Virus record (IMG/VR): IMGVR_UViG_2859810971_000004
Length of the DNA: 24,933 nucleotides
DNA from: a virus
Lineage: Duplodnaviria > Heunggongvirae > Uroviricota > Caudoviricetes
Direction: 5' to 3' (one strand)
A program made the position numbers. Shown here piece after piece: positions 18,001-21,000 of this stretch. The first letter of the stretch is position 1. Every line of letters begins with the position of its first letter.

Positions 18001-21000
18001 ATTGTTTAATGTGCAAGTACAATGACTTTTATTTTTTGTTGTGTATATAATCAAATATATGGTTATTTTTCACCCTGCGTATTCAGCACGCAACAAAAAA
18101 CCCGCCGAAGCGGGTTTAGTGCGGGTGCGTTGAGGATGCCTGACACATGAGAGGTGGCGAGGGATTTCTCCCCCGCCTGGTCTCTTACTCCTCAGGTTCG
18201 TAAGCTGTGAAGACAGCGACCTCCGTCTGGCCGGTTCGGATTCGTACCTCGCAGAGGTCTTTCCTCGTTACCAGTGCCGTCACTATGACGGTTAAACAGA
18301 TGACGATCAGGGCGATTAACATCGCCTTTTGCTGCTTCATAGCCTGCTTCTCCTTGCCTTTCGGCACGTAAGAGGCTAACCTACATTTGTGAGACATAGA
18401 TTGGGCCTCAGATTAATGTTAAGCGTCTTGCAGGACGCGTAATGTTAACTGGGGCTTTTCTCTGTCTGCCTTACAGTGGCATGCCCGAGGCAGACAGCCT
18501 CAAGCACCCGCAGCAATCTTACCGATACCGATAAGAAAACGCTATTTTTTATTGCCAGCACCTTCTATCCAGGCTAATTTATCTGCGTCAGAACGGCGCA
18601 ATGCGCTCGCCTGAGATACGTTTACTTGCCATGGTAACAACAGGTAACGGCAATTGCTGTTTCTGTTTTGTTTCCTTCAAAAACCCCGGACCATCAATCC
18701 GGGGTTTTTGTTTGTTAACCCCAACGGCAAATCGAATACACCACCAGCGCCACCGCCATCGCAATTCCTACCGTGGTGAATGCCTCAGGCCAGGTCATTG
18801 ATTCACCTCCTGCGGTGGTTCCGGTAGCGGCATCCAGTGAGTTGAGCTCTCTACTTCAACGCCGTCTTTGTCCACAAAAGCCATCTTATTCCCGCCACGA
18901 GTGGGGCAAAAAACCTTATCCCAGGAACCGGGAATACATTCCCGAGATCATCGAGAAGAATCACATCGCAATATTCAGCAGGAACTGCATCACTACAGCT
19001 TATCCAGCCAGCCAGAGTTACCGGAGAGTTGCCAGCCTTACGCATGGCCATTTCCACGATTTCAACCATATCTCCTGGTGGAATTTTACAAAGTTGCCCA
19101 ATACATTTCTGCTGCCTGGCATATTCGAGAATGTGCTCCAGTTTGGTTCGATTAATCATTATTTATCTCCCTTAAGCATGGCAGCGCGGCAGGCGTTCCA
19201 GCCATCAACATAATCAAACGTATTACTATCGTTTGGCCCGATTTCATCCGGCACTATCGGCTCTGGTTGGATAGTGACGTTGGCAAAGGCAGCACGCAAA
19301 CCGGTTTTAATTTCTTCGATTTCATCAGAGCCAAGCGATGAATCTGACAGTGCGTGATGGAATGCGTAAGCCATGTCGTCGTTTACTGCAACCGGCACTG
19401 CCGGCGCTGCGTAAAGCGGTGTTATATCTGCCCGAAAATCACATGCTTTATGCAGTCGTACCCAACGCTCAACTTCCGCTTTGTAAAAATATATAGCAGT
19501 GAACGTATTAGATTCCTGGTCAACTTGAGTAAACGTCACCTTCCACGCTACAGCTACGGCTTTCCATCCATCAGGTTGTCGCATTCGCGGGGCAGCATAA
19601 AGCTCATGCATTCCATCAGGCAGCGAGTGACCCACATACTCACCGAACCCGTCAATACACATGCCCCCATCTTCAACAATGCATTCCGCTACAGGCTCTG
19701 CTTCCAGTGATGCCAGAGCGATAAGCGCCAGTTCACGAATTTCACCGCCGTCTATATCGTCAATATCATCGCGGCCAGAAATGTTAGCCAGCCATTGCAG
19801 TCGCTCTTTGGTAATAGTAGTCATGCCGTAGCCCCTTCTTGATATTTTTCAAACCAGAACACAACCGGGTCAGATTTCATTTCAACCAATCCCATACGAA
19901 CCAGCGCTTTGCCTTTCCCGGACGCAAGGAATTCACGACGACCATCACTGATAATTCGTCGATAATCTTCCAGGCTACTGCAATGCTTGTGCAGATTGCA
20001 TGGGTGGCATTCTGGTACCATGTTGGATATATCGTCACGTTCCTGGTGAAGCATATTTCCATCAAAACGAATGACCGGTTTTACATGGTCTGCATGCCAC
20101 TTTTCGCCAAGTTTGCAGCCGCAATAAGCGCAGCGACCACCGAACTTCATGCGCAGTTCTGCACGTTGTTTTTTCGTCAGTGCCATATCAGCTTTCCTTA
20201 TACGGATTAATTTTATTGTGCAGTGTGTTGAATGACGCCCATACCACGTCGTTATACAATTCAATAACTGGCTCAATTATTTTTCCGATTATCCAGACAA
20301 AAATTTGCGGGGATATCGGTGTCATCAACACGATAAACAGAATGAGAAACAGGAATTCTGTTGTTCTACTCTTTCGCGGATATTTTTTTCTAAATAATGT
20401 AACCATTCATTACCGCCCTTTCGGGCGGTCTCCTGATGATTTGAGGGTGCAGAAATCCCTCCGGTTAAGGATTAAATTTTTAACAGTGCTAAATTTAATT
20501 ATTCAGTTCTGGATTTTGTCGCCCTGCGTATCCGCGCTTTCGCGTTACGCTCAATCTGTATCAGCTTTTCTATATTTCTCCGCCTTTCCTGTTCCTCCTG
20601 GCGCAATAGCCTTACATCATCTGCCAGTCTGGTTTCTCTTTTTGCCACAGAGAGCATCCAGTCAAACGGCTCCACAACCGCACCGCAGATTTTACAGCGG
20701 ACCTGACGCTCTTTTTCGTCAACCCGTACAGAGGCGTGATGGCAATATGGTCTTTCCGATGGCTTATAAAGAAAATTAACCTGATTACGAGGGTCATCCT
20801 CTTTTATCGGAAATAAAACGATATTGCTTAACTCATCTTCTGGTTTTATTTCCATGCTCCTCTCCTTTGATGCGAATGCCAGCGGTAATTGAAGCCTGAT
20901 AGCTAATTTCATTCACAGTATCGCCTCCTGAAAATTACCCTGATAGAAAGCCAGTACACGCTGCATAGCTTCGCTCTTCCGGCACTCGCGACAGATTATA

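Follow-up and report, generated by a model that had tools for sequence, protein, structure and literature searches.

The virus sequence IMGVR_UViG_2859810971_000004 (24,933 bp, from IMG/VR; this whole stretch is called the window below) carries on its minus strand three overlapping genes that encode a 121 amino acid (aa) HNH endonuclease, an acidic 221 aa protein that we call p221, and a protein with a DUF551 domain. The p221 gene is accessory cargo of an ordinary kind that combines modules of an already known mosaic family in a new way, the ATGA and TAATG overlaps among the three genes are normal packing for a chain of genes like the lambda nin region, and the HNH gene, an optional cassette next door, is not an obligate partner. 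Our favoured explanation, to which we assign a probability of about 0.65, is that p221 represents one of the many module combinations within a hyper-mosaic family of early accessory proteins, and that the HNH, p221 and DUF551 genes are consecutive cassettes. The original prediction, made from the sequence alone, had pointed out that the three genes are probably co-translated and that the middle protein shares its charge with DNA-mimic anti-restriction proteins; the observation itself is confirmed, and the interpretation is partly supported.

p221 Is Built from Exchangeable Modules

The p221 protein, which is annotated as a hypothetical protein in RefSeq, has no Pfam-A match at E ≤ 0.01 and no NCBIfam, PADLOC, PDB sequence or PDB profile match, and it has no housekeeping or structural homologue of the kind that would have argued against the original prediction. 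A homologue search at E ≤ 1e-3, in which 8000 candidates were scored, gave 3310 relatives with names such as DUF551-containing, ead/Ea22-like and DUF550 protein, and an exhaustive search against 50%-identity representatives matched 872 clusters, almost all of them to only part of the query. The full-length matches are near-identical Shigella and Escherichia coli copies, the closest protein relatives being named Shigella flexneri or sonnei, and thousands of enterobacterial prophage proteins, some labelled EaA, hold p221 modules in other combinations. PHROG matches are likewise piecemeal, each on a different part of p221, and belong to six families, all of unknown function (the PHROGs of this family, which has no curated name, are 60, 660, 3323, 5117, 12449 and 17148).

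Modules A to D (Table 1) were drawn from a homologue coverage map and an alignment of full-length relatives, and their boundaries fall at conserved linkers. At the N-terminus, family members have a helical leader, about 45 aa long and closed by a conserved motif (IALASLEAEPVA), and the small, interchangeable modules after it are joined by Pro/Ala-rich linkers (LYAAP..PVA, GNSPVTPDGW). p221 has this MTTxT-leader plan, with a leader that ends in ALASLEAEP and modules that lie between PVA and LYxxP linkers. Elsewhere its modules occur as fusions with DUF551, with DUF550 or with an Ead/Ea22 N-terminus: in the 264 aa relative P0036, leader A and module D precede a C-terminal DUF551, an arrangement that many relatives have in one protein; P0035 and P0054 each carry modules B and D behind a Pfam Ead_Ea22 (PF13935) N-terminus; and P0098 has another leader, module D and a zinc-ribbon-like C-terminus. 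Within module D, residues 148–218 of p221 are 87–90% identical to part of the “EaA protein” genes of several Escherichia and Salmonella phages, although only about a third of p221 is shared with them. p221 has no DUF551 domain of its own; in the window DUF551 is the next gene, joined by the TAATG overlap and provided with its own 47 aa leader.

Around modules B and C, no direct DNA repeat of 9 nucleotides (nt) or more was found at the junctions, and the PVA motif at the protein level was the only recurrence. One candidate for a giant repeat relative (P0140, 2728 aa with 23 matched stretches) proved to be an unrelated Ig-like repeat protein with a compositional match. At another locus (L141:2716–2760) the 5′ end of the mosaic gene contains three tandem copies of the 9 bp repeat ACCACTATT, giving MTTITTITTIT, which suggests that the sequence there, where the family has its conserved start, is prone to slippage. 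Downstream of the HNH gene in five further loci (L117, L121, L203, L241 and L254) the same type of leader carries a MazG/DUF550-like segment (REHAAWSQATFG...GPLKHL...), by eye and by source annotation a putative nucleotide pyrophosphohydrolase module.

The Overlapping Genes Belong to a nin-Type Chain

Both overlaps are present as originally described (Table 1), and they are in keeping with the rest of the operon: from the DnaC-like gene to a 27 aa open reading frame (ORF) at the distal end, the spacings of consecutive genes are 14, 0, 92, 1, −4, −1 and −4 nt, with DUF4014 and the HNH start only 1 nt apart. Packing is tight along the whole operon, so the overlaps are not specific to HNH, p221 and DUF551. 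Every start in the operon also has its own Shine-Dalgarno-like purine run (7–9 nt upstream for these three genes), and translational coupling is therefore plausible and not required; separate Shine-Dalgarno sequences are seen in the window, in intact relatives and in HNH-less alleles alike.

According to a passage in PMC8022706, which cites Kroger & Hobom 1982 and Cheng et al. 1995, “numerous ATGA sequence motifs” join stop and start codons in the lambda nin region. The operon studied here shares with the lambda and P22 nin genes the ATGA-type packing, a row of small, non-essential genes placed after the replication genes and before Q, and the exchange of cassettes at gene boundaries, whereas its gene content differs, and no lambda nin gene is present in the stretch examined. 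Upstream of the three genes lie the DnaC-like and DUF977 genes and downstream lie hok, DUF1367 and the Q-like antiterminator gene DUF1133, so the placement in an accessory early-right region that had been proposed for them is borne out, and by position their region corresponds to the lambda nin region.

The operon belongs to an insertion sequence (IS)-riddled, decayed prophage of Rac/lambdoid type in a Shigella-type chromosome. The nearest annotated relative, a prophage of Rac/lambdoid type, has the order RecE, Rha, repressors, YdaT, YdaU, DnaC-like, DUF977, DUF4014, HNH, hypothetical protein, DUF551, hok, DUF1367, DUF1364, DUF1133, tRNAs, lysis genes and terminase. Five IS3-family copies, an IS1 and an IS66-family element break up the prophage in the window, the DUF551 gene is frameshifted (below), and the replication gene YdaU upstream is broken in relatives (it is a pseudogene in relative L001). 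In this genome the locus could be a silent, decaying remnant whose arrangement has no present function, which is compatible with a mosaic origin of p221 and which we regard as possible if somewhat doubtful: p221 and the HNH gene are intact, with 98–100% identity to those of other E. coli and Shigella strains, and silence would concern expression in one strain and not the identity of the genes.

The HNH Gene Is an Optional Cassette

The HNH protein, which starts at the ATG at 20186, matches Pfam HNH (PF01844) with 23.9 bits against a cutoff of 21.4 and PHROG 2118 with E = 1e-54, and on reading the sequence its CxxC...HxDH...N...CxxCN motif is intact (C19/C22, H31-D33-H34, N55 and C60/C63-N64). 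Its Pfam NinG score of 19.7 bits is under the cutoff of 25.4, which leaves it outside the lambda NinG/Rap group, and in PADLOC it has only weak, generic PtuB and PDC-M01B HNH-domain matches (best E = 3e-7, 28 bits). Homing HNH enzymes usually bear an extra DNA-binding domain; the Pfam scan of this protein found the HNH core and no additional DNA-binding domain.

The HNH gene behaves as an exact, ORF-sized cassette of 363 bp whose borders are at ATGs shared with HNH-less alleles. The HNH-less junction, which lies in the stretch GGAAAGCTGATATGACCACTATTACC, reads ...GCTGAT/ATGACCACTATTACC..., and with the cassette it reads ...GCTGAT/ATGGCA...(HNH)...ACGGC/ATGACTACTATTACC.... A comparison anchored on DUF4014 (80 loci, 76 of them usable) found HNH right behind DUF4014 in 34 loci and absent there in 42. 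Over hundreds of genomes the HNH DNA stays 95–99% identical beside variable neighbours. A segment of ~50 nt at the 3′ end of the gene (19821–19870), which includes the Shine-Dalgarno sequence of the next gene, recurs at 97–100% identity in HNH-less E. coli; these copies (H50–H52) stand under other hypothetical genes, and the segment looks like a shared junction upstream of mosaic genes.

Presence/absence polymorphism at a defined site with ORF-precise junctions, a nearly constant sequence between variable neighbours and the recurring terminal ~50 nt are features that a selfish, free-standing homing-type cassette would also have, in which case p221 would be a bystander and break-induced recombination would raise the diversity around it. 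There is precedent in SegB, a homing endonuclease that reshapes adjacent accessory loci (PMC13096335), and like SegB and the T4 Seg/Mob enzymes the HNH gene is an intergenic, optional nuclease cassette beside accessory genes. Unlike them, it encodes only 121 aa with no recognizable DNA-binding extension, and its position in the block is not fixed: some loci have the order HNH-DUF4014-mosaic and others have different small cassettes in the slot, which fits general nin-type exchange and also weakens the possibility, which we considered, that the cassette homes precisely to the 5′ end of the mosaic gene. We therefore think a homing-type cassette unlikely, although it would be compatible with our favoured explanation.

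Mosaic Genes Commonly Follow HNH Genes

The original prediction proposed that co-occurrence of the three genes be checked in other prophages, and the outcome was divided: synteny of HNH and mosaic genes is found at the level of the family, and the exact set of three is not conserved. Among 5426 complete E. coli genomes, 385 carry the HNH gene (counted as present at ≥80% coverage), only 2 the full p221 gene, and 246 carry pieces of it. We collected 80 IMG/VR loci in which the HNH protein is at least 94% identical to that of the window; 77 of these have a downstream ORF, which begins with MTT(F/I/N) in 73 cases and almost always has the ATGA overlap. Clustered at 90% identity and 90% coverage, these ORFs fall into 29 clusters (16 ORFs in that of p221, 27 in that of a 114 aa variant, the rest mostly singletons). 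In a second clade of 74 loci, with HNH proteins about 49% identical to that of the window, a mosaic gene is immediately downstream in 53, and most of the remainder have one 0.2–2 kb further on, in some cases in the order HNH-DUF4014-mosaic. At least 6 of 15 HNH loci in other genera have the same type of leader downstream, which overturned an earlier result, obtained by BLAST against the p221 modules only, that the downstream genes there are unrelated.

Mosaic genes also stand without HNH. In most of the 42 DUF4014 loci that lack a directly following HNH gene, a mosaic gene comes directly after DUF4014 or after a small cassette of 87, 95 or 126 aa, and HNH genes in turn also precede unrelated genes, namely NinG (a true NinG in L023), a methyltransferase, TraN and DUF4014. 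This is family-level synteny inside a block of exchangeable cassettes, in which mosaic genes are independent of HNH and nearly always present, whereas HNH is optional. In Escherichia phage Dewey (PQ850600; L201, positions 2170–2872) a DUF4014-like gene is followed by a mosaic gene annotated “RNA-binding protein”; the pair is part of the early-left operon there, with xis and int a few genes away, so across different temperate phages the DUF4014/mosaic cassette pair is found in the early-left as well as the early-right operon.

The frequency with which a mosaic gene follows HNH directly in all three samples, the retention of the ATGA overlap in nearly all loci, and the small size of the nuclease, which has no targeting domain and only the weak PtuB-like matches, could be taken to mean that the two form a functional pair, with the mosaic protein serving as a specificity or adaptor subunit or as an inhibitor like the immunity protein of a colicin DNase. 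Such a pairing seems quite improbable to us: HNH proteins at least 94% identical are found beside mosaic proteins of 29 architectures, whose leaders are of at least 8 unrelated kinds, which speaks against a specific interface, each gene has its own Shine-Dalgarno sequence, and each also occurs without the other.

It is still less probable that the MTTxT-leader mosaics are fast-shuffling adaptors for counter-defence or host takeover, with one target per acidic module, and that the adjacent HNH enzyme spurs their diversification, gene conversion or amplification by making local breaks. This could be likened to the SegB-driven amplification of anti-defence loci in T-even phages; our literature search found no anti-defence role assigned to Ea22, EaA, DUF551 or DUF4014 proteins, and PADLOC, with no match for p221, DUF551 or DUF4014, places none of them in a known anti-phage defence system.

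The Acidity of p221 Is a Family Trait

The 221 aa protein does have the negative charge and the DDIDDID run (residues 19–25) that were noted in the original prediction: with 21 Asp and 17 Glu against 8 Lys and 10 Arg its net charge is −20 and its isoelectric point (pI) 4.42, and it is the sole acidic product of the operon (the others have pI values of 7.7–10.0). “Strongly acidic” is a relative term: p221 has 17.2% Asp + Glu and a net charge of −0.09 per residue, compared with 29.1% and −0.24 for T7 Ocr (reference sequence from NC_001604); its charge density per residue is thus about 40% of that of Ocr and below that of a DNA mimic. Of 254 relatives with a length of 100 aa or more, 84% have a pI under 5, and the median is 4.54, so acidity is a trait of the family and not special to p221. 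Of 259 relatives, 55 have the DDIDDID run; it belongs to one leader among at least eight alternatives and lies in the variable middle part of that leader.

The structure prediction and profile search called for by the original prediction were run for p221, and they gave low-confidence models and no match. AlphaFold2 with a 58-sequence alignment returned a mean predicted local distance difference test (pLDDT) score of 54 and a predicted template modelling score of 0.30 for the full protein, with only module C (about residues 91–138) at 68–79; module D modelled alone reached a pLDDT of 63 and was predicted as three helices with a long, unconfident linker. Foldseek found no match for these low-confidence models (best E 0.25 in PDB and 0.85 in BFVD). 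They give no support for a rigid DNA-like surface, and being weak they do not disprove one either.

An Ocr/ArdA-type DNA-mimic anti-restriction protein, co-translated with the HNH and DUF551 proteins, would like p221 be acidic, small, accessory and phage-borne, and p221 is encoded in an accessory early region; yet we judge this reading of p221 highly improbable, given that Pfam, NCBIfam, PDB and Foldseek link it to no such family among those that these libraries include, that its charge density is far lower and its acidity generic in its family, that its low-confidence model shows small modules on flexible linkers and not a rigid DNA-like rod, and that its gene is at the far end of the operon, whereas gene 0.3 of T7 precedes all other T7 genes in entry and expression.

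The DUF551 Gene and Other Features of the Window

The copy of the predicted DUF551-like gene in the window is a frameshifted one. Compared with E. coli FDAARGOS_944 and with S. flexneri SFBU1023, both of which encode 121 aa, the 102 aa ORF lacks one G of the run at 18930–18932; the gene may be a true pseudogene, or the homopolymer may have been misread in sequencing. Pfam DUF551 matches the window ORF with 22.6 bits (cutoff 22) over positions 1–45 of 68, being limited to these positions by the frameshift, and the intact orthologue with 69.9 bits over positions 1–68. Beyond it, a 27 aa hydrophobic ORF (MTWPEAFTTVGIAMAVALVVYSICRWG) with a GGAGG Shine-Dalgarno sequence overlaps the intact DUF551 stop by ATGA; it is unannotated in relatives and counts as a putative gene. 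Other variants of the region end in a different small transmembrane-like ORF, for example one of 49 aa in L150. A G+C-rich hairpin likely closes the operon as a bidirectional intrinsic terminator. Further upstream in the chain, the zinc-ribbon ORF contains an internal ATG at 20855 with a better Shine-Dalgarno sequence (AAGGAGAGGAG), and its true start is therefore probably there.

Each IS3-family copy in the window consists of a 100 aa HTH_Tnp_1 ORF and a 272 aa rve ORF. An IpaH-type effector gene sits amid the IS elements beside prophage remnants, and this NEL-type effector points to a Shigella-type chromosome. The exact HNH protein and the 102 aa DUF551 ORF occur together in the 4.5 Mb chromosome CP026810.1.

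Table 1. Positions of genes, p221 modules and other features in the window.
Feature	Position	Strand	Remarks
DnaC-like helicase loader	21350–22096	minus	248 aa
DUF977/Ren-like gene	20913–21335	minus	140 aa
Zinc-ribbon protein	20499–20912	minus	137 aa as ORF, 118 aa as annotated in relatives
DUF4014 gene	20188–20406	minus	72 aa; Pfam 88 bits; conserved upstream neighbour of HNH
HNH endonuclease gene	19821–20186	minus	121 aa; Pfam HNH, PHROG 2118
HNH/p221 ATGA overlap	19821–19824	minus	junction sequence GGCATGACT
p221 (acidic mosaic protein)	19159–19824	minus	221 aa; no curated domain match
p221 module A (leader)	19687–19824	minus	residues 1–46; ends IALASLEAEPVA
p221 module B	19567–19686	minus	residues 47–86; ends LYAAP
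p221 module C	19417–19566	minus	residues 87–136; ends LYAAP..PVA
p221 module D	19162–19416	minus	residues 137–221; ends DGWNACRAAML
p221/DUF551 TAATG overlap	19157–19161	minus	junction sequence AAATAATGATT
DUF551 gene	18795–19159 (intact extent)	minus	frameshifted; 102 aa ORF at 18851–19159, 121 aa when intact
Hydrophobic ORF	18715–18798	minus	27 aa; read from sequence
Hairpin, likely bidirectional intrinsic terminator	18678–18710		13 bp G+C-rich stem, flanking A and T runs; strandless
Hok/Gef-family type I toxin ORF	18185–18397	minus	hokD-like in relatives; immediately past the operon terminator
IS3-family copies (five)	~488–1753, 5406–6670, 9082–10348, 13833–15095, 23396–24660		about 1265 bp each; 99.4–100% identical
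IS66-family transposase	6985–8586		
IS1	16982–17679		
IpaH-type effector	2942–4657	plus	571 aa; type III secretion leucine-rich repeat and NEL E3 ubiquitin ligase; Pfam NEL E = 1e-76

Discussion

Among the known proteins nearest to p221 in kind are those of the Ead/Ea22 family (PF13935; lambda Ea22 and its Shiga toxin phage variants), which are also early, non-essential, mosaic accessory proteins of lambdoid phages; published work on Ea22 proteins already describes their mosaic organization and acidic C-terminal domains, as well as one variant with DUF551 (PMC10834534). Ea22 is encoded in the exo-xis region, whereas p221 is encoded in the early-right nin-like region. Ea22 favours lysogeny (PMC10834534), and YfdS, the DUF551 (PF04448) protein of prophage CPS-53, inhibits replication initiation together with YfdQ and YfdR when overproduced (PMC4776307).

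In our favoured explanation, the HNH, p221 and DUF551 genes occupy the distal end of an early-right operon that runs from replication genes to the nin-like region, and new variants of the mosaic gene would arise by in-frame recombination at linker-coding and start/stop sequences. By analogy with the proteins above, p221 may be a non-enzymatic and possibly oligomeric binder with several modules, which would probably act early after induction or infection, its acidic modules perhaps binding proteins of the host or of competing phages.

Several points weigh against this explanation. The analogy with the functions of Ea22 and YfdS is a weak one, as neither lambda Ea22 nor DUF551 has a module in common with p221. 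No similarity between p221 and lambda Ea22 is detectable (hhalign E = 0.42, BLASTP E = 0.5), and p221 has no PF13935 match and indeed no Pfam domain at all, so that the functional analogy comes down to shared mosaic partners. The poor AlphaFold2 models of p221 and module D neither back nor exclude a binding scaffold. Finally, the HNH-then-mosaic order is kept across clades whose HNH proteins are about 49% identical, which could mean that more than synteny is involved.

For p221 itself, these results remove a speculative anti-restriction candidate and explain the gene overlaps, and they carry little weight otherwise. The family to which it belongs is large, numbering thousands of sequences in the prophages of Enterobacterales and, at 50% identity, 872 clusters, and what stands out in the loci sampled here is the intense in-frame shuffling of modules, with 29 architectures, beside a nearly invariant HNH gene. 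A function found for any single module would annotate very many prophage genes in E. coli, Shigella and Salmonella.

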